Source: Deltaproteobacteria bacterium (GTDB taxonomy: Bacteria > Desulfobacterota_D > UBA1144 > Nemesobacterales > Nemesobacteraceae). From it: DNA of 64,000 nt. The position numbers and the translations under genes were made by a program. This document shows, in pieces, positions 3,294 through 36,811 of the stretch. The stretch's first letter is position 1. The number at the start of each line of letters is the position of its first letter. Location of the stretch: the NCBI GenBank assembly GCA_029262295.1, contig JAJCZR010000004.1, positions 14,313 through 78,312 on the forward strand, written 5' to 3'. A model generated the notes under the pieces. That model was not told where the DNA came from. It saw nothing but the letters and a program-made list of their open reading frames with translations, and made no database searches.

Positions 3294-3551
3294 TTTGAAT
3301 ACTCCTTTGAAATTATTGTTGAAGTTTTATTTTATCTAAAGATAAGTGAAACTTATAGATTGTTTGGAAAATTATGACGTACATTGTCATGCTGAACACA
3401 TTCGACAAGCTCAGTGCTGGCTCGTTTCAGCATCTTTTTTTCTGTCATCCTCGAATGCTTAAATCGGGGATCCACATTTTTTAATAAATTAGATCCTGAA
3501 ATAAATTCAGGATGACGAAACGCCAACACTCTCGGTTCCCAAACACAGGAT

Positions 3552-6917: not shown

Positions 6918-6953
6918 CATCATCCTGGATACCGCATCAAGTGCGGTATGACA
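6918..6953 (+). repeat. TGTCAT-hairpin repeat family, copy 1
   Basis: CATCATCCTGGATACCGCAtcaagTGCGGTATGACA. Perfect 8-bp stem ATACCGCA/TGCGGTAT. Confidence 0.6.
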
Positions 6954-7015
6954 GAATATTCTTTTATTATTCTTTAAAACCAACATCTAAGTTCTAACAT
7001 CTAACACCTATAATA

Positions 7016-14514: not shown

Positions 14515-17500
14515 CTAATCCACATTATTCTGAAGATAAACGATATTCTCTTCAATCATATTATAGATATCGGGAAACTGGTTTTGGCTAAATACTTTTT
14601 GAGCTTCCCTGTAAGACTTAATTGAGTTTGAGTAGTTTTGTTTTTTATCCTCACTTTCAGCAAGAGTTGAGTATGCACCTGCAAGATTATTCCTCGTAGT
14701 GGCATACTGTATTGGAAACTTCTCAAAGCTGTAAACAATCAATGCAGATTCGTAAGAGGAGATTGCATTTTTACAATTATTACTTTTAGACTCAACCTCG
14801 CTTAATGTCCTGTAAGCAACACCAAGATTATTTTGAGTGGCAGCAAACTGAATTGGCATATTTTCAATAGTCCTTACTTTCAGAGCACGTTTATAGCTTG
14901 ATATGGCTTTTTTACAGTTATCAATTTTGTTTTCTTCTTCAGCAAGGGTCCTGTAGGCAGTGCCAAGATTGTTCTGGGTATTACTGTATTGAATAGGAAA
15001 ATCCTTGAGCGAGTAAGCCTTAAGCGACTTCTCATAGAAACTTATAGCTTTAGTTGAGTTCACAGCTTTATTGTTAACCTCTGCAAGGTTTCTGTGTACA
15101 ATACCAAGATTATTATTAGCGGCAGCAAACTCCATAGGATTGTCATTAATATCATATACTTTCAGCACTTTAGAATACGAATCGATTGCCTTTTCACAGT
15201 TTTCTACTTTGTCTTCAAGATCAGACAATGCACTGTAAATTGACCCTATGTTGTTATATATGCTTGCATAAACAAAAGGTGTTTTGCTAAAACTATAATA
15301 TTCAAGCGCACTTTCATAGGCTTTTATTCCCTTCTTGCAAAACTCGGGATCATTATTTGTCTCAATTAGCTTTAAGTAATTATTTCCAAGATTTCTGTTA
15401 ATAAGACCATAATCGTTGGTATTATCATCAATAGAAAAGTAGTTAAGTGAATCTTCATAACAGACAACTGATTTCTCAAGATAGCCGCTGTCATTATTTC
15501 TCTCGCCATAAGTACCGTATGCAATTCCAAGATATTTATTTACTAATGCATATTCACCTGGGGACTTTTCCTTATCAAAACTTTCCAAAGCATGCTCGTA
15601 GGATTTAATTGAGTTCATAAATGCTTTATTATCAAACTCTATTTCAGAGATAACTCCATAAGCAATTCCAAGGTTCATATTAATTATTGCATAATCCTGG
15701 GGATTACTTTGTTTTGTAATGATTTTAAGGGCTTTATCATAAAAAGGGATGGAATCTTTATAGTACTTGAGTTGCCCTTCCCTTTCTGCAAGTGAAGTAT
15801 TTACAATCCCAATATTTTTATTTATTGCAGCATGATCTTCGGGAAAATCTTTTGAATTAAAATAGTTAAGTGCATTCTCTGCAATTGTTAACATATTTTT
15901 ATATTCCCTTAAATCAATTTCTCTTACATTTTCAGGATAAATTCCAATAAGATCCCGGCTTATTTCAGCATAAAAAGAAGGTTGTTCTTTTTCATCAATT
16001 TCATTAATTGCGTTTTTATAATTTTTAATAGCTTCAGAGTAACCTAAAAGATTGACACCATTTTCTGCATCTGCCACATAAGACTCAGAAAGTTTTCTGG
16101 ATACTTCTATAAATTCCGAAGGAGAATCTTTTTTATTTATATTTTCAAGCCTGGCTTTATACTCCTTAGTCATTGAGGGAGCTTTTTGCTCATCTTCACT
16201 TGCAACTACTTCGGGGGCTTCCTGTTCGGGGGCAAACTCTTCTTTTTGTTCTTCTTCTACTTTTGCTTCCAGGCTTTCTTCAGTTATTTCATCTTCACTA
16301 AGTGTATTATCAGCTAAAATCTCAGATGGTTCCCCTTCAATTTGTCTATCTTCACTCATTTTTAATGAAGAACTTTCTTCTATCATTTCATCAACAAGTT
16401 CAAGCACATCATCACTCTCAGAATCTTCTTTTGCTTCCAGTAGTTCAGAAGGGTTAGTGCTGTGAGTTGCAGCCTCTACTTCAATTTCTTTTTCCTCATC
16501 AACTTTTTCTTCCTCAGCAGATGCCAGTAAAACTTCTGTTTCAACTGGTTCTTCATCTACAGGCTCAACCGTATCAAAAGAAGCAAGTATTTCTTTTACT
16601 TCATCAATTTTCGGTTTGATTTCAGTAATCTTCTCACCGTTTTTTTCATTTTCATAAAAATCCATTGCACTATTATATAAGGCTAGTGCATAGTCGAGCT
16701 TTACCCTTTCCTCATTAATTGCAAAAAGGCTATGGTTAATAAAAGCAAAATTGAGGTTTATTTCAGCCGTATCCTCTTTAGTACCAAGTTTTTCAACTGA
16801 TTGTAAGACTTCATTCAATATTTTTTCAGCACTATAAATATCTTCTGCATTACTATCCGAATCGTAAAGTTCGACAAGGCTAAAACCTTTTAATTTTTGA
16901 AGCTGAAAATTTCTTTCTGGATAATCTTGCTCCGGATATTTTGCGAGAAGGACATCAACTGTAGATATCTTTTCCCTTACATTCTCTTTTGACTTTAAGA
17001 ATTCAAAATTAAGATTAAATATTTCATTCATTCTTTCATTTATATGAGAATAAATAGATGAATTTTCTTTCTCAGTGAAATAACTTTCGGCAATTCTATA
17101 GTGATTCTCACTATCAATTAATAAGGATTCGTCTTTTTTATCTTCAAATAAACTAAAACATATGTCTGCAAGATTAAGATTGATTTCAAAATACTTCTCT
17201 TGTGATTTTTCTTCACTGAAACCCTGCAAAACTTCTTTATATTTTTCAATTGCAAGAGTGAGTTCACCATTTTCTCTATATGATTTAGCCTCAAGTAAAC
17301 CAGCTTCATCTATAATTTCTTTTACTTCACTTAACCTTGGATCAGCAGCATCAATATTTGAATTATTTACAAATTTGTCAAAATATTCAAGGGCTTTCGA
17401 AGCATATTCAGTGTTATCTGATTCTACCGAAATTCGGTTATAAAGCCGTGCAATAAAGTATTGTAACTCTCCTGCATTTTTTGGATCTTCATTTTCAGCA

Positions 17501-20500
17501 AAACCCGCACTTTGTTTTAATGAAGACATAAACTCATCAAAATCATTTTTATCAAGAGCTTCAGTTGGTTCATCCAAATAACTTTTAGCAAGAATAAGAT
17601 TGTATTTTGCAATCTCACCACTATTCCCAGCATTTGAAGCTATTTCTTTAAGCTTGGTTATATAACCTTCTCTTTCTTTAAAACTAAAGGGGCCGTTTTC
17701 AAGAAGTGATTCATAGATAGATTTTATATTTAGTTCAGCATTCTCAAACTGAGTAGGAGAATCTTCTTTTTTATAAACAAGTAAAGATGCATTTGAATAA
17801 TTAATAGTATTATCTGCATCAGCCTTGTTTGCTGATTCCTGAAATTTTTCTTTGAAATGGTTTGCGAGTTTAAGATTTATCTCAGCATATTTCGCAGGTT
17901 CTTTCTCAAGTGTAAAATGTGTTAGTAAGTCAATATATTTATCTTCAGAAAGCTTTCCGCTCTTGGTAAAATCTGCTTCTGCACTTTCATGCATTAGCCT
18001 TGCTATTTTATCATTTACTTCATTTAAAAGCTTCTGATCACCTGATGGGATATAACTTAGTGAATTTTTGTAAAACTCGAGTGCTTTGCCAGGTTTTGAG
18101 TTATCGTTATTTATTGAGTAAAGCTTTTCAAAAAGCTCACCGAGCTTGATTGCCACATCTGCTTTTTTCTCATTTTCACTGATGCTGCTGAAAGAAATAC
18201 GATAACATTCAACAGCTTTTGTATACGTATCGTAGTCATTATTAGCATCAGCGAGTGTTGAAAAAAGCCCCGCATTTTTTAATTTTTGTTCATAAAACAA
18301 TTGATCTCTTTTCTCTTCATCTATGAGTTGGGTTGCTTTTTCATAAAAGAAAAGTGCAGTTTCAAGTTCCTCTTTGTTTTCATAAATATTTCCATAAAGA
18401 CGATAATTATCGAACAATTTAGAGCTAATAACTGCAACTTCTTCATCCTCTTTGTTGAACATGTAGAGTTCCCTTGCTTTTTCATAATGCTCAATAGCAT
18501 CTGACAGGGGTTCCTTTTCTTCTGACAACCCATATATTTCATTACTTATATTTCCCATCATAGTCTGGATTGCAGCGAGCTCAGTGAAATCATTTACCTC
18601 GTCAAGATAACTCATATAATTTTTAAAATTGATTATTGAAGTTTTATAAAGATCAATATCATTTTTCGTTTCACCAAGGGAAAAATAAGTCTTCGCAATA
18701 TCTTTATAAGCAGAAGGAAGTGCTTCGTATCTTTCATTTTCTTTATAAAGGGAAATAAGGCTGCCTAGATACTCAACTTTCTTTTCATTATCATAATGTC
18801 CATCTTCCTCAACTAACTTTTCATAAACTTTCTCAAGATAAGAGTTGATATCACCCACTTCATCAGAAGAGCTAGAATCGCTATTTAAAAAGATATTCTT
18901 TGCTTCATTAAAACAGGTAATAGAATTATGCAAATCTTCTATTTGGTTCTCAGAATCACTGTTTTCGAAATAGCAGCGGCCCATTAGTTTTTGGATAGAA
19001 GCATATTTATCAGGATAATTTTCAGCATCATAATATTGAAGGCTTTGCTGAGATAACAAGATTGCCTGTTTTGAATTACCACTATTAAATTCATTCTCAC
19101 TATTAATAAACAAAAGCCCCGCTTTTTCTGCACTATAATCTTTGGCTTCATCTAAAAGATTATTATCGTTGCAAAAATGTATTAAATCATCAACAGTTGA
19201 TATTGAATTATTGAGGTAATTAGTGTCTGCTTCATTTTCGAACAGGAGCTTTGAGCTTTGGTAAATATTTTTTTGTATTGAAAAATATTTGTCTGAAAAA
19301 TTTTCTTTACTAAAGTATTCCAAAGACATGCAATAATTCTCAATAGACCTTGTTAGACTATCTTTGTTATATTCTTTTTGGGCTAGTTTTTGGTATGAAT
19401 CCCCAAGGGTAATAAAAGAAGTAGCTGAATACTCTGTGTTTGGTTCTGAATCTATAAAATCAATATCTTTTTCAATAAGATCAATCACTTTACCAAAATC
19501 TTCATTTTCATAAAAACTATCAACAAGCGTTTGCTTATTAGCAAGATAGATCTTAGAAATATCACTATACTGCTGCGATCCTGATTCAATAGAATTAAGC
19601 GCTTGTTTAAAATAATGATTGGAATCAAAAAGCTTTGATTCTTCACCAGTTATTGAATAAAGTGTTGCATAAGTTTCAGCAATATCACTATTAAGAGCTA
19701 CATATCTATTTTGATCTTTTTCCTTATTAAAAAAGCTTAAACCCTCTTCGATTTTGGATATTTTATTATTAAGCAGGTCAGCATCTTTCGAGGTTACTCC
19801 CAGTTTTCCATCAATATCAGCACTGGATAAAAGGGTGCTATAATATTTTTCAGGCTCACCTTGCCTATCAATTGATTTAAGTGCATTTTTAAAAGCAGTG
19901 TTAGCTTTGTTTAAAAATTCGTTATTTTCATTTACTTCATAGGATTTAAGGTAAAGTTCCCCAAGATTAATCTCGATACCTGAGGTATTCATTCCCGTAT
20001 CTTTAGACTCGAATATACCTAGAAGTTTATTGTAATATTCAACACCATCCTGAGTATTATCAAAACTCTTATTTTCTGCCAACAATAGCTCATGTGCAGC
20101 TTTAAGTTTGCTCCTTATCTCACTATTCTCATTAGGATAATCTTTTTCGTTAAAAAACCCTGAAATGTTTTCATAATTTTCAATTGAGTCAAACATTAAG
20201 CCCAAATCATTTTTAGTGCTACCCAACTCAAACTTGGCTGTGGCTAATTGAAGATTTATATGGGCATTTTTATTTGGAAACTCTTCACTATCAAAAATAT
20301 TAAGTGAACTTTCTAAATGAGCTGCCGACTTATTTAAATGGTTGTCATCTTTTTCTTGCTGATAAAGAGATAAGCTCATAGAACCAATCTCATAATCAAC
20401 AACACCATTTTCATAAATATGTTTTTCACCTTTAAACCCAAGCTGACTTTCCTCTAAACAAGAAAGGCATTCCTTGTATGGTACCATTTCATTGTTTATC

Positions 20501-23500
20501 AATGCATTTTCTTTATTGAGCATTGCAATATGATAATTTGTTGCTGCGTATATGAGGGGATAATTTTCAAGGTTAAATTCATCGAGTGATTCCTTATAAG
20601 TATTTATAAGGTTTTCATAAGACTCAGGTGTATTTACCTTATTATGGAAAAGCCTGTAGGCATTGGCAAGATTGATACTTGCCCTTTGTCTTACCACCTC
20701 CCCCACCTGTCCAGTATCATCCTGCGACATCTGGGCAACTGACCTCAAAATATCAATTGCCTTTTCACACTCGTCATTTTCTGCTGAGCAAGTCGAGTTA
20801 TAGATATGGGCAACACCGAGGTTGTTTTTAAGTGCTGATTCAAGATAATCAGTCCCAAAGCTGTTTAGAATTTCCTTTGAAGATTCAATATCCACGATCG
20901 CAGCATTAATATAAGAATCTTTTTCCCTGTGTGAGAAAAGAAACAGATTACAGCATGCACTATTATTTTTTATTGCAGCATAAACGCCTGGATTCCTTTC
21001 GGAATTTATTTCCTTCAAGGATAGTTCAAAATTATCAAATATAGTGGATATATCTTCATTTGAATGTGAACCATCAAATTCCGACAAAAAAAGCTTGGCA
21101 TTTGAATAGTTGTTTCTACAAATAGATAGTTCAGTGTTAGCGCCAATACTTTCAAAATATTCAATTGCACTTGAATAATCAGTGAGCGCCGGATCTAGTA
21201 AACCTTTATCATTATTGATCTCATAAAGCGTACATTTGGAATTAGAAAGATTGTTTTTTACAGTTAATAGTAGCTCAAGGTTATCTTCAGGTATCAACTC
21301 AATCGATTCATTAAAAATTTCAGACGCTTTGCTTAGATTTGCCTCAGCCTCCATAACCTCAGATAACACGCAGTAACTTGCACCAAGGTTGTTTAATACA
21401 AGGGCATGATCGATTTCATGTGACTGTGATTCAATATAGTCTGCTGAACTACTTAGTTGCCTTACAGACTCAAGGGCATTTTCTTTTTTATTTTCAATAA
21501 ATGCGAGTTTTCTATGTAAATTACCGAGATTGTTGGATATTTTTGCATATTGTATTGGATAAACATCAGATTTAAAATATCTTGAAGCATTTTTATATGC
21601 CTCAATAGCCTTATAGATATTGCTAACATTAAGACCATCTTTAAGGTCATTTGAAAACAGGCCTCCAAGTTCAATTTGAATAAGGCTGTATTCTTCAGGA
21701 AAAAACTCATGTTTAAAATAGCCCAGTGATTCAAGATTTGCTCTTATTGAAGATTGAAGCACTTCTGGATCTTTTTCATAGACATAAAGCTCTTTATAAG
21801 ATCTTGCTATTTTTCTCATGATAAAGCCATATTTACTTGGGTTACTTTCTCCCTCGAAGACTCTTTTAGATTCTTCAAATGAAGAAATGGCTTTCTTTAT
21901 CAAATCAGGGCTTCCATCAAAAAAGGCTACATCAAGATAGGAATCACCAAGGTTATTCTGGATCATTGCATAGTTGTCTGGATACTCATCAAAGGAGTAA
22001 ACCTTTAGCGATTCATTAAACGAGTTAATGGCATTTTCAAGATAGGTTTTGTTATCTGTTTCCTCTGCAAGAGAAGTGTATGCAACCCCGATATTATTTT
22101 GTGTCATTGCATAATCAATTGGGGATCTTTCATAAGTTATAAATTCTGAAGAAACTTTATAACACTCAATTGCCTTATTGCAGTTCGCTTCCTTGTTTTC
22201 AAACTCAGAGAGGGCACTATAGGCATTTCCAAGATTATTTACCGTGGAGTAATATGTTTCAGGAAAATCATCTTTATTGTATATCTCAAGGGCCTGTGTA
22301 TATGAATCAATTGCTTTTGTGCAATAATCGCTTTCAAACTCAAGCTGCGAGAGCATCTCGAAAGTGGCCCCTGCATTTCTTTTAATTTCAGCAAAATCCT
22401 CAGGTTTATGATCACTACTAAAAAACTGCAAACTTTGTTCGTATGAATCTATAGCCCTATGGCAACTTTCAACATTTCTTTCAAATTCACCTTCAAGCCT
22501 GTAAGAAGTGCCAAGGTTTCTGTTTAATGTTCCATAATATTCAGGCTGTTCTTTGGGGTCAACAAGTCTGAGTGCATCTTCATAACATTTAATCGCTTCT
22601 TTTATTCTATCTTTATGTTCATCCTCATGAGAAATTTTTAGATGAGAGTCGCCCATCTTTGTTTTAATATCAAGATACTGCTCAGTTTGCGTATCGCTAT
22701 CAATAAAATTAAGTGCTTCTTCAAGGTGTTCAGTTGCTTTTATACAGTTTTCAATTTTGTCTTCAGATTTTGATAATAGAAGATAAGCCTCACTCAGCCC
22801 TAAAAGGGCCTCAGGATATCTTTCATCATCTTTTTTATCCTCAAGCATTAAAATAACCCTTTCGTAACTTTCTACTGAGGATTTAATTATTGTATTATCT
22901 TCACTAATATCACCAGCTTTTCCCAAAGCATGGGAAAGTTTAGTCTCAATATCCAAATCATCGTATTCTATCGCAACTTCTTCAAAAGAAGCCTTTGAAG
23001 CCGAAAAGCTTTCAATTGCTTTATTGTAGATATCAAGTTCTGCGCTCTCTTTAGCTTTATTCAGATAAGAAATTCCAAGATTATAGTTGATATTTGCATT
23101 TTTGATTAGGCTTTCTTTATTGGCCGGAAGTGAAATTATCTCTTCAAAAAGTCCTATCGCTTTTTGATTTTCACCAAGCTTAATACATGAAACTGCAAGG
23201 TTGTTTTTAATATCCAGGATTAATGCCGACTCGTCCTCAGAGGAGAGAAGTTCTAAAGCTTTGATATAAAAGAAGCTTGCCTTTGTAGCAAGCGAGTTAT
23301 CTTTGTCATCTGAGAGCAAACATGCATCTGCAAGATTCTTTAAATTTTCAATACTAACTTCAATATCGCTATCAGCATTAACAATATTTTCTGTAAAGGT
23401 TTTTAAAACTTCACTAAACCGGGCCTTGTCATTTTCATCTGCATCACAAATTCTTTTGGTCAAAATTGAAATGGCAAGATAATTAATATTTAAAAGAAGG

Positions 23501-24228
23501 GCTTTATTTTCATCATCAAGATTTGAGTATTCAGCACTTGCTGCTTCAAAATCTTTTATACTCAGATTTTCATGATCTTCAGCTTTATTTAGAAACTCAG
23601 AAATTGCACTTGATTCTGATAATGATTTTATTTCGTTTCGTATTTGCTCAAGCAGTTTATTATCCAGGGAGTTGTTTTTAATTCCTGAATTTACAAGCTC
23701 AATAAACTGCTCTTTACTTTCCTCAAAATTGGAAAAATCAAGTTCTACAAGATTAAGGTTGTTATCAAGAAAATTTTCTGAAATGGATTTAATATTAGAG
23801 AAAAAAGCTTCATCATCTTTTATAAAATCTGCTTCATGCCCCGAGAGTGTTTCAGAAAGGTTAGTCAGTTTTTCAAAAAAAGCTTTGTTAGAGGAGCTTA
23901 GTAAAGCAATTGATGGAGTATTTGATTTTTGTAGTTGGCCATAAACAAGCACTGTCTTTGGGCTAAAACCATCCAGGATAAAAATATTAAGTGCCGAGCT
24001 TTTATTTATTTTAGAAATGTTATCAATATCTACATCTTTTTCGTTGATTGTATTTATTCTTATGGATTTTGAACTGAGATATGACTTAACCTTATTAATA
24101 GCTTCAGGGCTATTTAAAGTATTAAAAACAGAAGGATAGATAAGGTTACAGGGGACCGGTGTACCAAGAAATAAACTTGTTGATTGAGATTTTGTGAGAT
24201 CAATTTTATAAATTCTGTTTTTAGACAT
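14515..24228 (-). CDS. giant TPR-repeat protein (3237 aa) with an internal acidic low-complexity linker
   Basis: Single uninterrupted ORF. A TPR-like motif of 40-42 aa (..NNLGxAY..L.....KAI..Y..AL..Y....P..YA.) recurs along the length. An E/D-rich segment lies roughly at DNA 16080-16560. The C-terminal ~500 aa form a near-consensus TPR array, visible at DNA level as ~126-nt periodicity in 14515-15900. Confidence 0.85.
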   Translation of the reverse strand: MSKNRIYKIDLTKSQSTSLFLGTPVPCNLIYPSVFNTLNSPEAINKVKSYLSSKSIRINTINEKDVDIDNISKINKSSALNIFILDGFSPKTVLVYGQLQKSNTPSIALLSSSNKAFFEKLTNLSETLSGHEADFIKDDEAFFSNIKSISENFLDNNLNLVELDFSNFEESKEQFIELVNSGIKNNSLDNKLLEQIRNEIKSLSESSAISEFLNKAEDHENLSIKDFEAASAEYSNLDDENKALLLNINYLAISILTKRICDADENDKARFSEVLKTFTENIVNADSDIEVSIENLKNLADACLLSDDKDNSLATKASFFYIKALELLSSEDESALILDIKNNLAVSCIKLGENQKAIGLFEEIISLPANKESLIKNANINYNLGISYLNKAKESAELDIYNKAIESFSASKASFEEVAIEYDDLDIETKLSHALGKAGDISEDNTIIKSSVESYERVILMLEDKKDDERYPEALLGLSEAYLLLSKSEDKIENCIKATEHLEEALNFIDSDTQTEQYLDIKTKMGDSHLKISHEDEHKDRIKEAIKCYEDALRLVDPKEQPEYYGTLNRNLGTSYRLEGEFERNVESCHRAIDSYEQSLQFFSSDHKPEDFAEIKRNAGATFEMLSQLEFESDYCTKAIDSYTQALEIYNKDDFPETYYSTVNNLGNAYSALSEFENKEANCNKAIECYKVSSEFITYERSPIDYAMTQNNIGVAYTSLAEETDNKTYLENAINSFNESLKVYSFDEYPDNYAMIQNNLGDSYLDVAFFDGSPDLIKKAISSFEESKRVFEGESNPSKYGFIMRKIARSYKELYVYEKDPEVLQSSIRANLESLGYFKHEFFPEEYSLIQIELGGLFSNDLKDGLNVSNIYKAIEAYKNASRYFKSDVYPIQYAKISNNLGNLHRKLAFIENKKENALESVRQLSSSADYIESQSHEIDHALVLNNLGASYCVLSEVMEAEANLSKASEIFNESIELIPEDNLELLLTVKNNLSNSKCTLYEINNDKGLLDPALTDYSSAIEYFESIGANTELSICRNNYSNAKLFLSEFDGSHSNEDISTIFDNFELSLKEINSERNPGVYAAIKNNSACCNLFLFSHREKDSYINAAIVDIESSKEILNSFGTDYLESALKNNLGVAHIYNSTCSAENDECEKAIDILRSVAQMSQDDTGQVGEVVRQRASINLANAYRLFHNKVNTPESYENLINTYKESLDEFNLENYPLIYAATNYHIAMLNKENALINNEMVPYKECLSCLEESQLGFKGEKHIYENGVVDYEIGSMSLSLYQQEKDDNHLNKSAAHLESSLNIFDSEEFPNKNAHINLQLATAKFELGSTKNDLGLMFDSIENYENISGFFNEKDYPNENSEIRSKLKAAHELLLAENKSFDNTQDGVEYYNKLLGIFESKDTGMNTSGIEINLGELYLKSYEVNENNEFLNKANTAFKNALKSIDRQGEPEKYYSTLLSSADIDGKLGVTSKDADLLNNKISKIEEGLSFFNKEKDQNRYVALNSDIAETYATLYSITGEESKLFDSNHYFKQALNSIESGSQQYSDISKIYLANKQTLVDSFYENEDFGKVIDLIEKDIDFIDSEPNTEYSATSFITLGDSYQKLAQKEYNKDSLTRSIENYCMSLEYFSKENFSDKYFSIQKNIYQSSKLLFENEADTNYLNNSISTVDDLIHFCNDNNLLDEAKDYSAEKAGLLFINSENEFNSGNSKQAILLSQQSLQYYDAENYPDKYASIQKLMGRCYFENSDSENQIEDLHNSITCFNEAKNIFLNSDSSSSDEVGDINSYLEKVYEKLVEEDGHYDNEKKVEYLGSLISLYKENERYEALPSAYKDIAKTYFSLGETKNDIDLYKTSIINFKNYMSYLDEVNDFTELAAIQTMMGNISNEIYGLSEEKEPLSDAIEHYEKARELYMFNKEDEEVAVISSKLFDNYRLYGNIYENKEELETALFFYEKATQLIDEEKRDQLFYEQKLKNAGLFSTLADANNDYDTYTKAVECYRISFSSISENEKKADVAIKLGELFEKLYSINNDNSKPGKALEFYKNSLSYIPSGDQKLLNEVNDKIARLMHESAEADFTKSGKLSEDKYIDLLTHFTLEKEPAKYAEINLKLANHFKEKFQESANKADADNTINYSNASLLVYKKEDSPTQFENAELNIKSIYESLLENGPFSFKEREGYITKLKEIASNAGNSGEIAKYNLILAKSYLDEPTEALDKNDFDEFMSSLKQSAGFAENEDPKNAGELQYFIARLYNRISVESDNTEYASKALEYFDKFVNNSNIDAADPRLSEVKEIIDEAGLLEAKSYRENGELTLAIEKYKEVLQGFSEEKSQEKYFEINLNLADICFSLFEDKKDESLLIDSENHYRIAESYFTEKENSSIYSHINERMNEIFNLNFEFLKSKENVREKISTVDVLLAKYPEQDYPERNFQLQKLKGFSLVELYDSDSNAEDIYSAEKILNEVLQSVEKLGTKEDTAEINLNFAFINHSLFAINEERVKLDYALALYNSAMDFYENEKNGEKITEIKPKIDEVKEILASFDTVEPVDEEPVETEVLLASAEEEKVDEEKEIEVEAATHSTNPSELLEAKEDSESDDVLELVDEMIEESSSLKMSEDRQIEGEPSEILADNTLSEDEITEESLEAKVEEEQKEEFAPEQEAPEVVASEDEQKAPSMTKEYKARLENINKKDSPSEFIEVSRKLSESYVADAENGVNLLGYSEAIKNYKNAINEIDEKEQPSFYAEISRDLIGIYPENVREIDLREYKNMLTIAENALNYFNSKDFPEDHAAINKNIGIVNTSLAEREGQLKYYKDSIPFYDKALKIITKQSNPQDYAIINMNLGIAYGVISEIEFDNKAFMNSIKSYEHALESFDKEKSPGEYALVNKYLGIAYGTYGERNNDSGYLEKSVVCYEDSLNYFSIDDNTNDYGLINRNLGNNYLKLIETNNDPEFCKKGIKAYESALEYYSFSKTPFVYASIYNNIGSIYSALSDLEDKVENCEKAIDSYSKVLKVYDINDNPMEFAAANNNLGIVHRNLAEVNNKAVNSTKAISFYEKSLKAYSLKDFPIQYSNTQNNLGTAYRTLAEEENKIDNCKKAISSYKRALKVRTIENMPIQFAATQNNLGVAYRTLSEVESKSNNCKNAISSYESALIVYSFEKFPIQYATTRNNLAGAYSTLAESEDKKQNYSNSIKSYREAQKVFSQNQFPDIYNMIEENIVYLQNNVD

Positions 24229-24553
24229 CTTAATTCCCCAAAATCACTTTAGCAAAAAAACCTTTTAATTTCAAACTGTTAGAATCGAAATTTAAAGCCA
24301 TTGCTTAATTTTAAATCAACAATTGATCTTTGAAAAAATGGGTTGACCTTGCAGGGATTAAGATGATTAATCAGAACTAATGATGATTTATAAAAAGTTC
24401 TTAAAATAACCTTTCTCCTTTAAAGGTGGTTCAGCAGCCATATTAAAATCCAACTTAGGCCTGACACTTTGCGCCCTATTCTTTCAAATAGTTTGCCTTT
24501 ATCTATTAAAGGTAAACTTTATGCAACAAATCAATTATATAGCATTTTAAAAA

Positions 24554-24904: not shown

Positions 24905-25080
24905 ATTCGACTCCTTTTAATTATTATTAATATAAAGTTAATAGTAATCTAACCGTTCTGGATTTTGAATAAACATTAATTTACTGAATAAGTTGTAATA
25001 TTGAGTGAATTTTCAGTATCATTAAACTTTAAAATCTCTGGAAACTTCAAAACTTTCTGTTTTCGTTCGACTTTGCTTAA

Positions 25081-26307
25081 ATGAAAATCTTTTATGGTTG
25101 GTATATAGTAGCTGCAGGGCTTTTTTTGATTATTCTGGATGGGCTTCTTCTTTATTCATTCGGCATATTTCTTCCCTACATTCTGGAAAACTTCTCCATC
25201 TCAACTGCCACAGGAGCGTCCCTATTTTCCGTTAGATGTTTTGTGCTTGCATTCTCAATAGTATTTGCAGGAAGAATGATTGATAAACACAATCCAAGAT
25301 ACGTGACTTTTATTGGTGGATTGATTGCAGCTCTGGGATTATTTCTTTCCGCTTATGCTACTGAACTTTGGCAACTTTACATTACTTATAGTGTAATGAT
25401 AGGAATAGGTGATGGGTTTTTATATATTGTGCCCGTTACGGTAATAAGCAGATGGTTTAGCAATAAAAGGGCCCTTGCAATTGGAATTGCTACTACAGGC
25501 GTGCCAATAAGCGGCCTTTTTGTAAACCCTCTCTCTGCATGGTTAATTGAATCTTTTGGATACCAAAGTGCTTTTATATACCTCTCATTACTATTTGTGA
25601 TTATTCTCTGCGCATCTTTTGTAATCAGATCTAGCCCCAAGGAAATGAGCCTTGAAGCTTACGGCGATAAAAAAAGCGATACAAAAGATAAGACGAAACC
25701 AATGAGTGAAGAGTGGACTGCAAAAGAAGCGTTTTCAGGAAAATCTTTCTGGCTCTTATACTTTATATTCTTTACAGGCTTTAACGCTTTTTTGATAATT
25801 ATCATCAACCTTTACAATTTTTGCATAGACTCTGGCATCTCGGCAATTACAGCTGCAGGAGCCCCCGCAGCAATAGGACTTGGAAGTATAATCGGAAGGA
25901 CTTTCTTTTCTGGAATTGTCACCAGATACCTTGAAAATACAAAAATACTTTTTGTCTGTTACTTCTTTCAGGCGTGTTCAATCCTGCTCCTGCTTGTATT
26001 AAAAGAAGTATGGACTTTATATCTGTTTGGTTTTCTTTTTGGTTTTTTCTATAGCGGATGGGTACCAATGTTCCCAACTATACTTGGAAGTTTTTACGGG
26101 CTTGGGTCACTCGGTACAATATTTGGACTTTTTGGAACAGGGTTTTCTGTTGCTGCCTTAACTGGCCCACTTGTGGCTGGAAGCCTTTTTGATCATACAA
26201 ACAGCTACTTTCTGCCGTTTGCACTTGCAGCAGCATTCTGCTTTCTTACTGCTTTTTTAACATTTTTAATAAAACCGCCTGAGAAAGTTAAAACAAAATC
26301 AGTTTAG
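25081..26307 (+). CDS. MFS transporter (OFA-like)
   Basis: 408 aa with 12 predicted TM helices and a central charged loop. Confidence 0.8.
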   Translation: MKIFYGWYIVAAGLFLIILDGLLLYSFGIFLPYILENFSISTATGASLFSVRCFVLAFSIVFAGRMIDKHNPRYVTFIGGLIAALGLFLSAYATELWQLYITYSVMIGIGDGFLYIVPVTVISRWFSNKRALAIGIATTGVPISGLFVNPLSAWLIESFGYQSAFIYLSLLFVIILCASFVIRSSPKEMSLEAYGDKKSDTKDKTKPMSEEWTAKEAFSGKSFWLLYFIFFTGFNAFLIIIINLYNFCIDSGISAITAAGAPAAIGLGSIIGRTFFSGIVTRYLENTKILFVCYFFQACSILLLLVLKEVWTLYLFGFLFGFFYSGWVPMFPTILGSFYGLGSLGTIFGLFGTGFSVAALTGPLVAGSLFDHTNSYFLPFALAAAFCFLTAFLTFLIKPPEKVKTKSV

Positions 26308-26444
26308 TAAAAATTTTATATACGTTTTATATGTCATCTCAAACTAGATTTAGCATCCAGGATTTTCACCAGGATTATAAATACATCTCAGGCTTCACCA
26401 GATTGCTGCAATACTATTATTCAACTGATAGTTTTTCTTTACTT

Positions 26445-26480
26445 CTATTCTGGATACCGGATCGGGGTCCGGTATGACAA
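26445..26480 (+). repeat. TGTCAT-hairpin repeat family, copy 2
   Basis: ctattCTGGATACCGGAtcggggTCCGGTATGACAa. Same flanks as copies at 6918 and 40494; stem carries compensatory changes (GGA/TCC where copy 1 has GCA/TGC). Confidence 0.6.
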
Positions 26481-26500
26481 TGTGGTATCTTTCGTTTAAT

Positions 26501-26548
26501 CCCCCTCACCCTAACCCTCTCCCACGGAGTGGAGAGGGGATATTGAGG
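26501..26548 (+). repeat. nested hairpin CCTCA..CCCTCTCC-loop-GGAGAGGG..TGAGG (module d)
   Basis: Perfect 8-9 bp inner stem. A related copy in opposite orientation lies at 6753-6790. Confidence 0.5.
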
Positions 26549-26570
26549 TGCATCCTGCATCATGCATCCC

Positions 26571-26720
26571 TTATTTTCCCTGACACCTAATCCCTAAAAC
26601 CTAACACCTATCTTTTCCTAACCACTACCTACTATCCACTAATACCTAAAACCTAACACCTGCATCATGTATCCTGCATCTTGCCTTTTACTAACACCTA
26701 AAACCTAATCCAGTTATATT
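26571..26720 (+). repeat. G-depleted CTAA/CCTAA-rich tract bounded by ATCCTGCATC-type motifs
   Basis: About 150 nt with almost no G on the + strand. cctaaaacctaacacct occurs three times. catcctgcatcatgcatcc lies at 26549-26570 and ctgcatcatgtatcctgcatc at 26660-26690. Confidence 0.5.
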
Positions 26721-26729
26721 AAACATCTA

Positions 26730-26966
26730 ATGTTTGGACTCGGAGCATCTGAATTAATAATAATTCTCGTTATTGCACTTATTGTGCTTGGGCCTAAGGA
26801 GATACCAAAGGTTGCAAGGACTCTTGGACGAGGGATGAGAGAACTTGAGCGTGCAAAAAATGATCTCAAAAAGAATATTGAGTTTAATGAAGATGATATT
26901 GATTTAGATAAAGTAATTGATGCAAAAGACGACAATAAAAGCAGTGAAAATGAAGCTAAAACTTAA
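26730..26966 (+). CDS. tatA: twin-arginine translocase subunit TatA/E
   Basis: MFGLGASELIIILVIALIVLGPKEIPKVARTLGRG is the canonical TatA N-terminal TM plus amphipathic helix. Confidence 0.85.
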   Translation: MFGLGASELIIILVIALIVLGPKEIPKVARTLGRGMRELERAKNDLKKNIEFNEDDIDLDKVIDAKDDNKSSENEAKT

Positions 26967-27042
26967 TATTTTAAGCAATATTTGCTTAATTTAACCTCTC
27001 AGATACTATTTACACAACTTGTTTAAAGCCGGATAAATCTTT

Positions 27043-28638
27043 ATGCCTAAAGTTATAATCGATGGAAACGAAATTGAAGTAGAAGAAGGGCTCAATCTCA
27101 TACAGGCCGCTTCAAAATTGGGCATTGAAATACCTCATTTTTGTTATCATCCTTCCCTTAGTATTGTAGCTCAGTGCAGGCAATGTTTGGTCGAAGTTGA
27201 AGGAGTGCCGAAAGTCTTACCTGCCTGCAACACATTTGTAAGAGATGGGCTTGAAGTTAAAACCAATACAGAAAAAGCACTAAAAGCCAGAGAAGCAACA
27301 CTTGAGTTTACACTTATAAATCATCCACTCGACTGCCCTATTTGTGATAAAGGAGGGGAATGCCCTCTTCAAATAACCACATTTAACCATGGCCCGGGTG
27401 GAAGTAGATTTGGTGGCCCTGAAAATAAAAAAGTCAGACAAAAATATTATCTGAGTGACAAGATAATGTACGATCCCAACAGGTGCATTATGTGTACAAG
27501 ATGCGTGCGTTTTACTGATGAAGTTACCAAAACTTCTGAACTGGGAACAAGTGGTAGGGGATTTAGAAAGAAAATATCTGTATTTCCCGGAAAAGAACTT
27601 AACAACGAACTCGCAGGAAATGTAATTGATATATGCCCTGTGGGAGCTTTATTAAATAAAGACACTCTTCACGAAGAGCGTGTTTGGTATTGGGAATTCA
27701 CGGATTCAGTTTGCTCACTTTGCAGTAATGGCTGTAATATCACCGTGGGTGTTGATCCCAGGAAAGGAAAAGTATCGAGAATAAGGCCAAGGGCAAATGA
27801 TGAAGTAAATGATTTCTGGATATGTGATAGAGGCAGATACGACTTTAAAGAAGTTCAGGAAGATAAAAGACTTAATGATCCAATTTATAAAAACGGGAAT
27901 GGATATGAAATCACCACCTGGGAAAATGCAGTAAGTGAGTTTCATACTAAATTTTCTGAAATCAGTAATGAATTTTCAGCTAATGTGGCAATAATCGGTT
28001 CAGCAAAACTAACAAATGAAGAAATCTTTCTTTTAACCAAACTCACTTCCAAAATTAAAAGCGCAAGATTAGTTTCAACAGTTGGAACTAAACATATAGA
28101 GAAGAAATTCAATATTCTAAGCAACGACCCTTATCCAAATAGTGAGGGGATAAGAAATTTTGAGATTGCAGAAAATCCAAGTGACATTGAAGAAACTATA
28201 GATTCAATAATCGATGGAAAGATCAATATGTTATTTGTTGTAAATGAAGATCTTTTTCAAATAGTTGATGAAAGTAAGGCACAGAAACTTAAAAGTGCCC
28301 TTGAGAACCAAAGGTACCTTGTTGTGCTTGATTCAAAACTCACTGAGACAGGAAGACTTGCAGACCTTATTCTTGCAGGTGCAACACCCTATGAAAAAGA
28401 TGGGACTTTCACAAACGATCAGGGAAGAATTCAAAAGATTAAAAAAGCGATAAATCCTCCAGGTAACGCCAAGCCCGACTGGCAAGTGCTGACTATGCTT
28501 GGGAAAAAATTCGAAAATGCGCTTTTTGATTACTCATCCCCATCTGAAATTATGGATGATATTAGCGAGAACTATGAAAGTTTTGAACAAATAAACTACG
28601 ATAGAATTGGTACTCTGGGAAGAGCAAAACTAAACTAA
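27043..28638 (+). CDS. nuoG: NADH-quinone oxidoreductase subunit G-like Fe-S protein (short form, 531 aa)
   Basis: N-terminal 2Fe-2S ferredoxin fold (CYHPSLSIVAQCRQCLVEV), a His-ligated 4Fe-4S motif (HPLDCPICDKGGECPLQ), and CxxCxxC...CP motifs. Confidence 0.75.
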   Translation: MPKVIIDGNEIEVEEGLNLIQAASKLGIEIPHFCYHPSLSIVAQCRQCLVEVEGVPKVLPACNTFVRDGLEVKTNTEKALKAREATLEFTLINHPLDCPICDKGGECPLQITTFNHGPGGSRFGGPENKKVRQKYYLSDKIMYDPNRCIMCTRCVRFTDEVTKTSELGTSGRGFRKKISVFPGKELNNELAGNVIDICPVGALLNKDTLHEERVWYWEFTDSVCSLCSNGCNITVGVDPRKGKVSRIRPRANDEVNDFWICDRGRYDFKEVQEDKRLNDPIYKNGNGYEITTWENAVSEFHTKFSEISNEFSANVAIIGSAKLTNEEIFLLTKLTSKIKSARLVSTVGTKHIEKKFNILSNDPYPNSEGIRNFEIAENPSDIEETIDSIIDGKINMLFVVNEDLFQIVDESKAQKLKSALENQRYLVVLDSKLTETGRLADLILAGATPYEKDGTFTNDQGRIQKIKKAINPPGNAKPDWQVLTMLGKKFENALFDYSSPSEIMDDISENYESFEQINYDRIGTLGRAKLN

Positions 28639-28639
28639 A

Positions 28640-29692
28640 ATGTCCACATCTCTAATAATCGGAATAGCAATAGTTCAAATTTCACTTGTTTTGTTTGTAG
28701 TGCTTACTGCAGTTGCATATCTCACTTTTGCAGAAAGGCGTATTAGTGCCTTTATACAGGACCGTTATGGCCCAAATAGAGTTGGCCCATTTGGTTTACT
28801 CCAACCCCTGGCAGACGGGATAAAGTTTATTTTCAAAGAAGATATTATTCCAAACAAGGCTAATAAAGCCATGTATATATTAGCCCCTGCTTTTGCTCTT
28901 GTTACGGCTTTGTCTGCTCTCGCAGTTGTACCGATTGGAAGAGGATTTAATACAGATCTATTTGGACTCTTAAATGAATCAATTTTCATAAAACTTCAGA
29001 TAGCTGATCTAAATATCGGAATTTTATACATAATGGCTATAAGTTCTCTTAGCGTTTACGGAATAGTATTGGGAGGATGGTCATCCAACAGCAAATACTC
29101 ACTTCTCGGAGGACTCCGTGGAGCTGCTCAAATGATAAGCTATGAACTATCGCTGGGGCTTTCACTCATTGGAGTAATAGCTATTACCGGTTCATTAAGA
29201 CTTGGTGACATTATTGAGGCCCAGGAAAGAGTTTGGTTTATGATACCTTCTTTCATTGGGTTTGTTGTATTTGTAATATCCTCATTTGCTGAAACAAACA
29301 GGCTTCCTTTTGACACTCCTGAGGCCGAACCAGAAATTGTTGCAGGTTATCACACTGAATATAGCAGTATGAAATTTGCAATGTTTTTCATGGCAGAATA
29401 CACTCACATGATACTGGCATCATGCTTGATAACCAGCTTGTTTTTGGGTGGGTGGTATCCACTACCGATTGGTGGATGGTTTGGAATTGATATAGATACT
29501 CATTGGTACTTACCACCAATGGTGTTTATCAGTAAAGTTGTATTTCTACTCTTTTTCTTCATATGGGTAAGATGGACTTTACCAAGATTCAGGTTTGATC
29601 AGGTTATGCACCTTGGCTGGAAAAAACTTTTTCCGCTTGCTATACTCAACATACTGGTTGTAAGTGTTTTAATAATTCTTGGTATTGTTTAA
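28640..29692 (+). CDS. nuoH: NADH-quinone oxidoreductase subunit H
   Basis: 350 aa with NuoH/ND1 signatures (LLQPLADGIKF, GWSSNSKYSLLGGLRGAAQMISYE, ETNRLPFD). Starts 2 nt after the nuoG-like gene. Confidence 0.9.
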   Translation: MSTSLIIGIAIVQISLVLFVVLTAVAYLTFAERRISAFIQDRYGPNRVGPFGLLQPLADGIKFIFKEDIIPNKANKAMYILAPAFALVTALSALAVVPIGRGFNTDLFGLLNESIFIKLQIADLNIGILYIMAISSLSVYGIVLGGWSSNSKYSLLGGLRGAAQMISYELSLGLSLIGVIAITGSLRLGDIIEAQERVWFMIPSFIGFVVFVISSFAETNRLPFDTPEAEPEIVAGYHTEYSSMKFAMFFMAEYTHMILASCLITSLFLGGWYPLPIGGWFGIDIDTHWYLPPMVFISKVVFLLFFFIWVRWTLPRFRFDQVMHLGWKKLFPLAILNILVVSVLIILGIV

Positions 29693-29699
29693 AAACATT

Positions 29700-29950
29700 T
29701 GTCATTCCAAACTTGATTTGGAATCCAGGTTTTAGAGAAGTTTTTCAAGCAAATATCTCCACTAACTATTTTTATTCCAAAATGGGTCAATCTCCAAATT
29801 TCTTTTCCAAGTTTTAAAAGCTTTTCTAAATAAATTATCAGCAATCTTTATGAGTAAATTATCATTTTTTACTCTCCATAATATAAATACAGGGGTGTTT
29901 CTTTTACTTTATTCCGTAATTCTGGATTCCAAATCAAGTTTGGAATGACA
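29700..29950. mobile_element. MITE-like element: two perfect 29-bp inverted copies of a hairpin repeat flanking ~190 bp of AT-rich DNA
   Basis: Left TGTCATTCCAAACTTGATTTGGAATCCAG at 29700-29728 is the exact reverse complement of 29922-29950. Each arm is itself a hairpin (ATTCCAAA/TTTGGAAT) with the same TGTCAT...CTyGA...ATCCAGG architecture as the dispersed repeat family. Starts 8 bp after the nuoH stop. Confidence 0.45.
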
Positions 29951-30038
29951 GAAAGAATAGAATATGTAACATATGTCTTCAATCTATAAAACTCCTCTGT
30001 CCAATTTCATTGGTGGAGAGGGGATTTCTTATATCATT

Positions 30039-31142
30039 ATGACAAAATACGAACTTGCTATAATCGGTGGAAGCTTTGCAGGACTTAGCTGCGCAGGAGC
30101 TGCTGCAGCAAGGGGTCTAAAAACAGTTGTATTCGATAAGAAAAAAAGACCTGGTTCATACACCCAGAGCACCGGTATATTTGTAAAAGAAATTGCTGAT
30201 CAAATAGACCTACCATCTCATCTTACAAACAAAATTCATGGTGTAAGGCTATACTCCCCTAACTTGGAGTATGTTGACCTTATCTCACCAGGATACTATT
30301 TCCTTGCAACTGACACATGCAGAGTATTGGAATGGTTTTCAAAAGAAGCAGAGAATAAAGGTACGAAGCTGGTTTACAACGAGAATATAAATAATATTGA
30401 AACCAGAGAATCAGATATCTATTTCCCAGATCAGGATATAAGCAGTAAATATCTTGTGGCAGCAGATGGTGCTAGGTCAAGAACTGCTAAAGAACTAAAC
30501 CTTGGAGTAAACAAATCCTTTCTACTTGGTGCTGAATTTGAAGTGAGTGGAATCAAAGGAATTGAGAGCGACTTTCTTCATGTTTTTTTAGACTCAAAAC
30601 TTGCGCCCGGCTATATAGGTTGGATCGTACCGGGAGTCTCACATTTTCAGATAGGTATTGCAGTTAAATATCCGAAAAAACCTAAAGTGAAAGAACTAAT
30701 TGAAAAAGTAAGTGGAATTTTTGATACAAGTGGAATGAAAATCACTGGCAGCAGAGGAGGCTTTATTCCATGTGGTGGAGTAGTCAAACCATACTACAAA
30801 GATAATGTTTGTCTTGTGGGTGATGCCGGTGGAATGGTCTCTCCTCTAACAGCAGGCGGAATTCATCCTGCAATTGAAATTGGAAGACTTTTAGGAATCG
30901 CAGTGAGTGATTACATTCAAGACGGTGGAATTAATCCGGGACTATATATCAAAAAACACCTACCCTCTTTCACTATCAAAAACCAACTCAGGAATATCTT
31001 TGATATATTAAGCCCACCAGATTTTCTTTACAACTTTTTAATTGGAAATAGTTTATTTAAAAAAAGTGCACAACTTATATTTTTTCATCACAGAGGGCTT
31101 CTTACTAAAAAAGCCTGGGAAGAAATTCTAAGAAAAAAATAA
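30039..31142 (+). CDS. FAD-dependent oxidoreductase, geranylgeranyl reductase family
   Basis: GxGxxG dinucleotide-binding motif (IIGGSFAGLSCAGAAAARG) and a GDAGG-like FAD motif (VGDAGGMVSPLTAGG). Start chosen at the ATG 30039, preceded by GGAGAGGGGA. The ORF track gives an alternative start at 29973. Confidence 0.7.
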   Translation: MTKYELAIIGGSFAGLSCAGAAAARGLKTVVFDKKKRPGSYTQSTGIFVKEIADQIDLPSHLTNKIHGVRLYSPNLEYVDLISPGYYFLATDTCRVLEWFSKEAENKGTKLVYNENINNIETRESDIYFPDQDISSKYLVAADGARSRTAKELNLGVNKSFLLGAEFEVSGIKGIESDFLHVFLDSKLAPGYIGWIVPGVSHFQIGIAVKYPKKPKVKELIEKVSGIFDTSGMKITGSRGGFIPCGGVVKPYYKDNVCLVGDAGGMVSPLTAGGIHPAIEIGRLLGIAVSDYIQDGGINPGLYIKKHLPSFTIKNQLRNIFDILSPPDFLYNFLIGNSLFKKSAQLIFFHHRGLLTKKAWEEILRKK

Positions 31143-31145
31143 GAC

Positions 31146-31529
31146 CTATAAAATATAGCTAATGATCAAACTAACTGAGGCAATAATTATTGTAGTAAAA
31201 GTAATAACCATTCCAGCAACTCTGAATTTAAGGTTTTCATTTACCTGCCTCACTCCATAGAAGTGAATAACTCTTCCAATGATAAGTGCAATTAATAATA
31301 AATGAATGACAATTTTTGAACTGATTTGTGTTTCGAGAAAAAATATCAAGATAAGTGCAATTGGAACATACTCAGCAAAATTTCCATGTACACGAATTGC
31401 CCGTTGAAGTAATTGATTATCGCCGTCTCCAATCAACACTTTGGCATTTCTTCTGATACCAATTGTTCTGAAACTCAGAAATATAAAAAACAATCCCAAA
31501 ATTGCTGCATAAATTGGTGTTATAAGCAT
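31146..31529 (-). CDS. MAPEG-family membrane protein (glutathione-S-transferase-like)
   Basis: 127 aa with 3-4 TM helices. Matches the MAPEG pattern (..RVHGNFAEYVPIALILI..). Confidence 0.65.
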   Translation of the reverse strand: MLITPIYAAILGLFFIFLSFRTIGIRRNAKVLIGDGDNQLLQRAIRVHGNFAEYVPIALILIFFLETQISSKIVIHLLLIALIIGRVIHFYGVRQVNENLKFRVAGMVITFTTIIIASVSLIISYIL

Positions 31530-31544
31530 TATTATCCTCTTTAG

Positions 31545-31955: not shown

Positions 31956-31980
31956 AGCTTTTCTCCTTTTAAAAATTTAG

Positions 31981-32568: not shown

Positions 32569-32616
32569 ATTTAATCTCCTAACAATGTATATACAAAGTT
32601 TATACTACTACTGTTA

Positions 32617-33893: not shown

Positions 33894-33896
33894 TTC

Positions 33897-34448: not shown

Positions 34449-34483
34449 TTATTAGTTCCAGAAATAGCTTTAATTTCTAAGGG

Positions 34484-35716: not shown

Positions 35717-35741
35717 AAAACGATTTAAAGTAAGTTTAAAT

Positions 35742-36758: not shown

Positions 36759-36811
36759 TTATACGTTCTCCCAATTAGATTTAGTGTTTACATTAACCAC
36801 TACCAACAAGA

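Follow-up and report, generated by a model that had tools for sequence, protein, structure and literature searches.

Intergenic hairpin repeats resembling Ssn-related motifs, with a probable ssn remnant, in a 64-kb stretch of a Deltaproteobacteria bacterium genome

Gene setting and hairpin copies

A family of short intergenic hairpins with conserved flanks and variable stems is dispersed through a 64,000-nucleotide stretch of a Deltaproteobacteria bacterium genome (GCA_029262295.1, contig JAJCZR010000004.1, positions 14,313 to 78,312), hereafter the window, and closely resembles the DNA motifs recognized by the small GIY-YIG nucleases named Ssn. The window is a housekeeping stretch with a G+C content of 35% and ∼92% coverage by open reading frames (ORFs). 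It encodes fumC, an acrB/membrane-fusion pair, hisS, a major facilitator superfamily (MFS) transporter, tatA, nuoG, nuoH, ribosomal proteins, gyrB, secDF, a 3237-aa protein and others, and the best named relatives of its GyrB come from Thermodesulfobacteriota/Deltaproteobacteria metagenome-assembled genomes (MAGs). Pfam analysis of 30 window ORFs, including the genes flanking the hairpins, returned housekeeping families throughout and no transposase, recombinase, reverse transcriptase or GIY-YIG protein. A tRNA/tmRNA scan of the window was empty, and an Rfam scan recovered only a c-di-GMP-I riboswitch, with nothing at the hairpins at the gathering threshold or at E ≤ 5.

The family is represented by six clear copies and three looser relatives, all nine outside ORFs. 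The clear copies fit TGTCAT-N6-CTNGA-N6-ATCCAG, in which the 8-bp stem comprises the AT/AT pair plus six variable pairs; a CTTGA-type hairpin, as written on the TGTCAT strand, reads TGTCATTCCAAACTTGATTTGGAATCCAG. The strand of each copy is the one that reads TGTCAT...ATCCAG, E-values refer to a covariance model whose training set included four window copies, and z-scores refer to DNA folding.

3386–3433, plus strand: looser relative, GTCAT-GCTGAAC...GTTTCAGC-ATC; ∼27 nt inserted in the loop; weak fold, z -1.4
3443–3475, plus strand: looser relative, TGTCAT-CCTCGA-(9-nt loop)-TCGGGG-ATCCAC; E 0.002; head-out doublet with 3489–3517
3489–3517, minus strand: looser relative, CGTCAT-CCTGAA-TTTAT-TTCAGG-ATC; 36 nt past the acrB stop; z -5.2; E 0.04
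6925–6953, minus strand: copy 1, TGTCAT-ACCGCA-CTTGA-TGCGGT-ATCCAGG; -9.2 kcal/mol, z -4.5; E 9e-11
26332–26360, plus strand: degenerate copy, TGTCAT-CTCAAA-CTAGA-TTTAGC-ATCCAGG; 4/6 variable pairs; no stable fold; E 1.5e-7
26450–26479, minus strand: copy 2, TGTCAT-ACCGGA-CCCCGA-TCCGGT-ATCCAGA; 6-nt loop; right arm of a pair with 26332
29700–29728, plus strand: hairpin, TGTCAT-TCCAAA-CTTGA-TTTGGA-ATCCAGG; 8 nt past the nuoH stop; E 2e-11
29922–29950, minus strand: hairpin, exact inverted copy of 29700–29728; z -4.7
40501–40529, minus strand: copy 3, TGTCAT-GCCGCA-CTCGA-TGCGGC-ATCCAGG; 13 nt past the gyrB stop; -9.6 kcal/mol, z -3.8

The pattern CTGGAT-N(14-30)-ATGACA has seven matches in the window against 0.14 expected (at most one in 100 shuffles). 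Six of these are hairpins; the seventh, at 49574–49601, lacks a stem, lies within an ORF and is probably due to chance. A generic detector (GTCAT, six paired bases, a 3-9-nt loop and ATC) recovers seven window copies and none in each of 200 shuffles, and the covariance model reports all six clear copies at E ≤ 6e-7, as well as 3443–3475 and 3489–3517. Copy 1 sits in the 302-nt spacer between the membrane-fusion-protein gene and acrB, and shares an additional 3' flank, GATGATG, with copy 3. The degenerate copy lies 25 nt past the MFS stop, as the left arm of its head-out pair, while the 29922–29950 hairpin lies 23 nt upstream of an FAD-monooxygenase gene. All three looser relatives are located between fumC and acrB.

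An earlier, sequence-only reading had described copies 1 to 3, which are present at the positions it gave, although two details needed correction: the 5' flank of copy 2 is TCTATTCTGGAT, not CATCATCCTGGAT, and copy 1 ends in ATGACAGA, not ATGACAAT. The constancy of strand that it saw in the numbered copies does not extend to the whole family: by the TGTCAT strand, the copies at 26332, 29700, 3386 and 3443 are on the plus strand and the others on the minus strand. The ‘MITE-like arms’ that it noticed at 29700 and 29950 prove to be members of the family.

Stem pairing and covariation

Selection acts on the pairing of the hairpin. The compensatory stem changes claimed from the three numbered copies (ACCGCA/TGCGGT, ACCGGA/TCCGGT and GCCGCA/TGCGGC) were confirmed and extend to 33 distinct copies, gathered from the window and from fetched loci outside it by flanks and loop only. 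In this set, 98.5% of cells pair, compared with 77% in shuffles, and each of the six variable pairs shows changes in both arms, with 64 compensatory cells against 15 expected (0/500 shuffles). Sliding the partner by one column reduces pairing to 40-50%. DNA folding agrees: eight of the nine window copies form hairpins, five at z of approximately -2.8 to -5.2 and three at -1.4 to -1.9, the copy without a hairpin fold being 26332. Covariation and folding together support the earlier description of a dispersed, stem-variable hairpin family selected for pairing.

Relation to NTS repeats and Ssn-related motifs

In Neisseria, NTS repeats restrict the incoming single strand during transformation. The NTS sequence, CGTCATTCCCGCGMAVGCGGGAATCYRG, encompasses Neisseria dRS3 (ATTCCC-N8-GGGAAT), and the wider class has been named Ssn-related motifs (SRM; Chenal et al., Nat Commun 2025, PMC11893778). 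According to that work, in many phyla the motifs border ssnA, which encodes a 94-aa single-domain GIY-YIG protein. SsnA of N. meningitidis and three homologs recognize only the strand that reads GTC-palindrome-C, and only as a single-stranded DNA (ssDNA) hairpin; strand-specific, ssDNA-only binding and cutting was demonstrated for these four Ssn/motif pairs. The C directly 3' of the palindrome matters most for binding and the three bases ahead of it (GTC) matter most for cleavage, which takes place in the variable flank on the 5' side, a few nucleotides from the motif. The loop is dispensable, the catalytic residues are Y6, Y17 and E64, and the enzyme is inactive on RNA (PMC11893778).

All nine window copies have GTC before the stem, AT...AT at its ends and C after it, which is the NTS layout CGTCATTCCCGCGMAVGCGGGAATCYRG. 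These elements are also invariant in the 33 distinct copies, though the selection of that set itself fixed GTCAT and ATCC. The likeness extends to the oriented flanks ((T/C)GTCAT...ATCCAG), to the intergenic, multi-copy occurrence, to a hairpin-ssn-hairpin layout found in two fetched genome loci (L056 and L095), in 36 of 75 metagenome loci and on viral contigs, and to the size (94-95 aa) and catalytic-residue spacing of the Ssn proteins encoded there. The differences lie in the stem and the host. The window stems are ATACCGCA, ATACCGGA, ATGCCGCA and ATTCCAAA, with loops of 5-6 nt, and the window copies have an 8-bp, AT-richer stem and a conserved CTNGA pentaloop that fall outside the published expression; the strict dRS3/NTS pattern (ATTCCC-N8-GGGAAT, or CGTCATTCCCGCGMAVGCGGGAATCYRG at ≤1 mismatch) is likewise unmet by the window copies. 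The host is an uncultured Thermodesulfobacteriota-like lineage, its window holds a probable ssn remnant and no intact ssn, and neither short head-out doublets nor pseudogenized cassettes are mentioned in the text of PMC11893778.

Three other systems bear comparison. Among the dRS3 repeats and NIMEs of Neisseria, dRS3, the palindromic core of NTS, has an equal stem length (8 bp counted from AT), and its copies bound short mosaic intergenic units much as the window pairs do, but the window stems (ATACCGCA, ATGCCGCA, ATTCCAAA and others) differ from ATTCCC and the loops measure 5-6 nt instead of 4. The REP/REPIN-RAYT system likewise combines one enzyme gene between inverted hairpins with many gene-less copies, mostly inverted doublets, and with hairpins recognized in ssDNA. 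Its GTAG head is absent here, the enzyme is a GIY-YIG protein and not an HUH/Y1 transposase, and transposition by Ssn is hypothetical. IS200/IS605 elements resemble the Ssn system in strand-specific recognition of imperfect ssDNA hairpins and cleavage a short distance from the hairpin foot, but their end hairpins lie on the same strand, TnpA and TnpB are absent here, and the window arms are inverted (head-out), from which cuts on opposite strands are predicted.

The consensus that the sequence-only reading could not recognize thus belongs to the characterized NTS/SRM family, including Neisseria dRS3 (PMC11893778). A match to a known repeat family, which that reading had named as counting against it, was therefore largely found; what stands is that the family is unreported for this lineage and that the copies lie outside the published expression.

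Association with ssn genes

Because the window copies escape the published expression, the association with a nuclease gene was tested directly. Two hairpin-seeded loci (L056 and L095) carry a 94-95-aa GIY-YIG ORF in which PF01541 is the sole substantial domain. In L095, the exact 29-mer of the window lies 22 nt upstream of the ATG of the 95-aa ORF, and an inverted CTTGA-loop copy follows just past its stop; a long-loop copy resembling 3386–3433 is also found downstream of this ssn. L056 repeats this layout with loops of the GAAA type. Across the ORFs assessed (L056, L095 and L128-L207), the invariant residues Y7, Y18 and E65 have a spacing equal to that of Y6, Y17 and E64 in SsnA. The Ssn-type family is very large, with 70-80% identity between phyla.

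Genomic neighborhood analysis of 80 metagenome ssn loci, retrieved by protein similarity alone, supports the association. A head-out hairpin (TGTCAT outward) lies within 120 nt upstream in 51 of 80, a common distance to the ATG being 8-13 nt, and an inverted hairpin lies downstream in 49 of 77, commonly 2-5 nt past the stop; 36 of 75 loci have hairpins on both sides. CTTGA-type and GAAA-type hairpins surround the same ssn genes, and viral contigs repeat this arrangement around their Ssn homologs, with CTTGA, GCTTGAC or GCTTGTC loops. This association indicates that the CTNGA-loop hairpins are motifs linked to Ssn and incompletely captured by the published expression. When ORFs of ≥100 aa from the first 126 loci fetched, 80 of them hairpin-seeded genome loci, were clustered, no recurrent transposase family emerged; a reverse transcriptase occurs in four loci. 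A PDB search matched only two structural-genomics UPF0213 GIY-YIG proteins, and not SsnA.

In L213-L222 (CPR2 bacterium GW2011_GWC1_39_9 and aquifer metagenomes), ssn is located inside the hrcA-grpE-dnaK-dnaJ heat-shock cluster, which is otherwise conserved, in the gap from dnaK to dnaJ. The identical Ssn protein P0097, encoded on many contigs, was considered as evidence of mobility and rejected, as it represents one dnaK-dnaJ locus recovered in many samples.

A probable ssn remnant between two window hairpins

The 29700/29950 pair has the head-out geometry of a cassette, with an interior of only 193 bp, within which one further feature is placed.

29749–29901, minus strand: probable ssn (GIY-YIG nuclease) remnant; protein hidden Markov model (HMM), DNA profile, blastn and shuffles

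Of all 2942 six-frame segments of the window, the one that best matches an HMM built from 120 Ssn proteins falls in this interior, on the minus strand (E 0.088). Two of the top five window matches to an nhmmer DNA profile of 80 ssn genes also fall there and are collinear: 29901–29867 aligns to ssn nt 3-37 and 29826–29749 to nt 193-271, with ∼115 nt missing between them. By blastn, the interior also matches the ssn genes of L145, L148 and L152 at the corresponding gene positions, and its chained score was reached by none of 1000 dinucleotide shuffles. The distances to the arms match those of intact cassettes: the gene would begin ∼18 nt away from one arm and end ∼3 nt short of the other, with the 29922–29950 arm on the 5' side of the remnant and the 29700–29728 arm on the 3' side. 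On these alignments, 29749–29901 is probably an internally deleted ssn pseudogene. The 89-bp interior of the 26332/26450 pair contains no recognizable gene remnant and no ssn remnant.

Gain of copies in the lineage and their arrangement

The window shares ∼20 kb of synteny with L208-L211 (GyrB 86% identical) and with L212 (81%, GCA_012974925.1), and the syntenic ∼20 kb of both relatives contains no family copy. Their MFS-tatA spacer measures ∼75 bp, compared with 453 bp in the window, and their spacer downstream of gyrB is without a hairpin. These alignments indicate that the copies were gained in the lineage of the window. Intergenic alignments are too diverged (the relatives have 75% nucleotide identity) to define exact insertion borders, and direct reading shows no evident target-site duplication at either pair. 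The segment 29694–31145 (1452 bp) comprises the cassette remnant and the FAD-binding monooxygenase gene (29973–31142) and separates nuoH from a MAPEG gene; in L208, these convergent genes are only 3 nt apart. The FAD-monooxygenase gene may have come in with the cassette or may have disappeared along with it from the relative.

Outside the window, adjacent copies (≤400 nt apart) are predominantly head-out, with 57 head-out, 16 head-in and 17 direct doublets in genome loci, 13, 3 and 2 in viral loci, and 61, 23 and 20 in ssn loci. Doublet spacers have two modes, one of 8-35 nt and one of ∼300-350 nt, the latter corresponding to the ssn gene. The pattern recalls REPIN doublets accompanied by a single-copy RAYT. 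Among singletons of the fetched loci that lie within 60 nt past a stop codon, 49 are in sense and 23 in antisense orientation, a moderate bias.

Occurrence in other genomes and phages

The exact 29-mer of 29700/29922 occurs in 86 stretches of species-representative genomes, with hosts in Patescibacteria, Saccharibacteria, Zixibacteria, Planctomycetota, Ignavibacteria, WOR-3, Dehalococcoidales, Cloacimonetes, Alphaproteobacteria, Methylotenera and Babeliales; one Nomurabacteria MAG (Patescibacteria) has more than 20 loci with it. Patescibacteria and other uncultured phyla, in which the 29-mer is abundant, would be covered poorly by a RefSeq-based survey. On viral contigs, scanned for flanks and loop with no demand for pairing, 33 of 53 matches are fully paired, including the perfect hairpin TGTCAT-CCCGGA-CTTGA-TCCGGG-ATCCAG. 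Hairpin-seeded loci also contain copies with GAAA, GCAG or GAAG loops (e.g. GTCATTCCCGCGAAAGCGGGAATCCAG) and TCCCGC stems, located beside CTTGA-loop copies with identical flanks. The CTTGA-loop and NTS-type hairpins are one family.

Across approximately a dozen phylum-level groups, the 29-nt hairpin does not vary and the Ssn proteins share 70-80% identity. This level of conservation greatly exceeds that of the host genomes and suggests either recent horizontal spread or very strong constraint. Tandem or alternating hairpin arrays occur in L044 (190-304) and L061 (254-368) of MAG BP7.bin44 and in L095 (2640-2860), with the identical 29-mer at a 43-nt period and, upstream of ssn, a BIME-like alternation of two hairpin types. 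A phage-like sequence with capsid and Mu gp36-like genes (IMGVR_UViG_3300037044_000272; L018/L020) carries six same-strand family hairpins, four of them, in L018, spaced ∼1.9-2 kb apart. The reverse-transcriptase ORF (∼340 aa, PF00078) recurs in L042, L066, L102 and L106, from three candidate-phyla-radiation (Patescibacteria-type) MAGs. Its distance to family hairpins is 0.3-1.7 kb in three of these loci and ∼4 kb in L066, and the two are not adjacent. It may represent a diversity-generating retroelement or a retron, and no direct link to the hairpins emerged.

Interpretation and alternative explanations

The window repeats are best explained as SRM/NTS-like hairpins, the DNA partners of small single-domain GIY-YIG ssDNA endonucleases (Ssn), a reading to which we assign a probability of about 0.8. 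As they keep GTC, AT...AT and the 3' C, the window copies would serve as substrates of a cognate Ssn. The copies would have reached the intergenic regions of this lineage in three forms: singletons, short head-out doublets and, in a single case, a complete hairpin-ssn-hairpin cassette (29700–29950), whose nuclease gene would have decayed after arrival. With head-out geometry, both predicted nicks would fall at the outer borders of a pair, on opposite strands. This kind of family has been known since 2025; the window adds a subclass and a lineage beyond the original description.

Several observations weigh against this assignment. The published SRM expression, HGTCWYN(0-2)YYVSBRHN(0-5)WNVSBRGN(0-2)RNCYNB, matches none of the nine window copies and only 5 of the 33 CTNGA-loop copies, whereas NTS controls match; the expression is a search tool derived from 29 genomes and no biochemical definition. 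Altering the palindrome sequence with the structure kept abolished the activity of N. meningitidis SsnA (PMC11893778), and since the enzyme is inactive on resequenced palindromes, we can only infer cleavage of the CTTGA-loop, AT-rich window copies. The proposed homology of the hairpin-flanked ORFs to SsnA is based on domain, size, catalytic spacing and context. No intact ssn was found in the 64-kb window by regular expression, tblastn (E > 5) or protein HMM. Finally, the E-values of the ssn remnant are singly 0.09 (protein HMM) and 1.7 and 3 (DNA profile), and the HMM and profile alignments conflict over the middle of the interval.

Other explanations account for parts of the evidence. The hairpins could be sites for a site-specific recombinase, an IS110-family or a filamentous-phage transposase, as has been reported for Neisseria dRS3, a role compatible with that of an Ssn substrate: this core of NTS is described as a phage-recombinase target (PMC11893778), and perfect family hairpins occur on viral contigs. 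As the window contains no recombinase, IS110-type gene or prophage, and no copy in it is split by an insertion, we consider this improbable. An action as RNA, as terminators or mRNA 3'-end stabilizers, would fit the copies that lie 8-36 nt past the stops of nuoH, gyrB, the MFS gene and acrB, the five window copies that come first after a gene, all with the TGTCAT strand as sense, and the sense bias of post-stop singletons (49 vs 23). Yet there is no U-tail, the 3' flank being ATCCAGG/A, and no copy is among the terminator-like sites in 25000–42000. Approximately one third of post-stop copies are antisense, inverted pairs are the commonest arrangement and SsnA is inactive on RNA, while a terminator role leaves the conserved single-stranded flanks and the gene association unexplained. 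A primary role at the RNA level is thus quite improbable, and a secondary effect of the hairpins on transcripts is possible. With Rfam silent even at E ≤ 5, no terminator tail and copies in both orientations, the earlier preference for a DNA-level, REP/BIME-like element over a cis-acting RNA is upheld.

Among mobile-element models, miniature inverted-repeat transposable elements (MITEs) derived from a DDE-type insertion sequence, with the hairpin as terminal inverted repeat, could account for the two inverted pairs enclosing 89 and 193 bp and for L001, a short-read contig from another sample that ends inside 29700–29728, as expected at a repeat. Every arm is itself a hairpin, however, and arms also occur singly (6925 and 40501); the two interiors are mutually unrelated, one resembling ssn and not a transposase, and neither pair shows a target-site duplication, which leaves this model very improbable. 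Least probable is mobilization as REP/REPIN elements by a RAYT (Y1, IS200/IS605 superfamily). Such elements are also short intergenic imperfect palindromes with an oriented head, BIME-like clusters and mostly inverted doublets (57/16/17 here), but the head is (T/C)GTCAT and not of the GTAG type. The sequence-only reading had proposed linkage to a RAYT, TnpB or transposase gene; the window has no Y1, TnpB or other transposase and none recurs in hairpin-seeded loci, the gene actually flanked by the hairpins elsewhere being the 94-95-aa single-domain Ssn-type GIY-YIG nuclease.

Within the Ssn-related interpretation, a more far-reaching proposal treats the cassettes and gene-less doublets as a self-propagating system akin to REPIN/RAYT, in which a GIY-YIG ssDNA nuclease drives horizontal spread across very distant phyla and phages. 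We regard this as unlikely; the window would fit it without demonstrating it. The spread would span Patescibacteria, Zixibacteria, Planctomycetota, Thermodesulfobacteriota and phages, and the enzyme would stand outside all known transposase classes. The window would record a recent invasion, marked by lineage-specific insertions, a short doublet and a decayed cassette, and the near-invariant CTNGA loop would reflect the spreading step and not cleavage.

For annotation, these hairpins and the spurious small ORFs arising from them can be labelled Ssn-related motifs instead of unknown REPs. A large subclass, marked by a CTNGA pentaloop and AT-richer stems, escapes the published expression; being common in uncultured phyla, it probably makes published SRM counts too low there. 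The lineage-specific insertions, the head-out predominance and the cassette with a decayed nuclease gene provide material on how the repeats multiply. The basic picture drawn in 2025 is unchanged by the window findings.

Other features of the window

The c-di-GMP-I riboswitch (64.7 bits; 24422–24507, minus strand) lies ∼194 nt upstream of the start of the 3237-aa ORF (14515–24228, minus strand), an arrangement kept in the relative L208. With the riboswitch ahead of it, the giant protein appears to be c-di-GMP-controlled.

The MFS-tatA spacer contains a second repeat family, CTAAnnCCTAAAACCTAACACCT, with four copies at ∼52-nt spacing (26573–26713) and one more near hairpin copy 1 (6993–7009). 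It has seven matches against 0.23 expected, and the same spacer in the relatives is without CTAAnnCCTAAAACCTAACACCT. A G+C-rich hairpin, CCCCCTCACCCTAACCCTCTCCCACGGAGTGGAGAGGGG, at 26510–26549, beside hairpin copy 2, is another inserted repeat of this expanded spacer.

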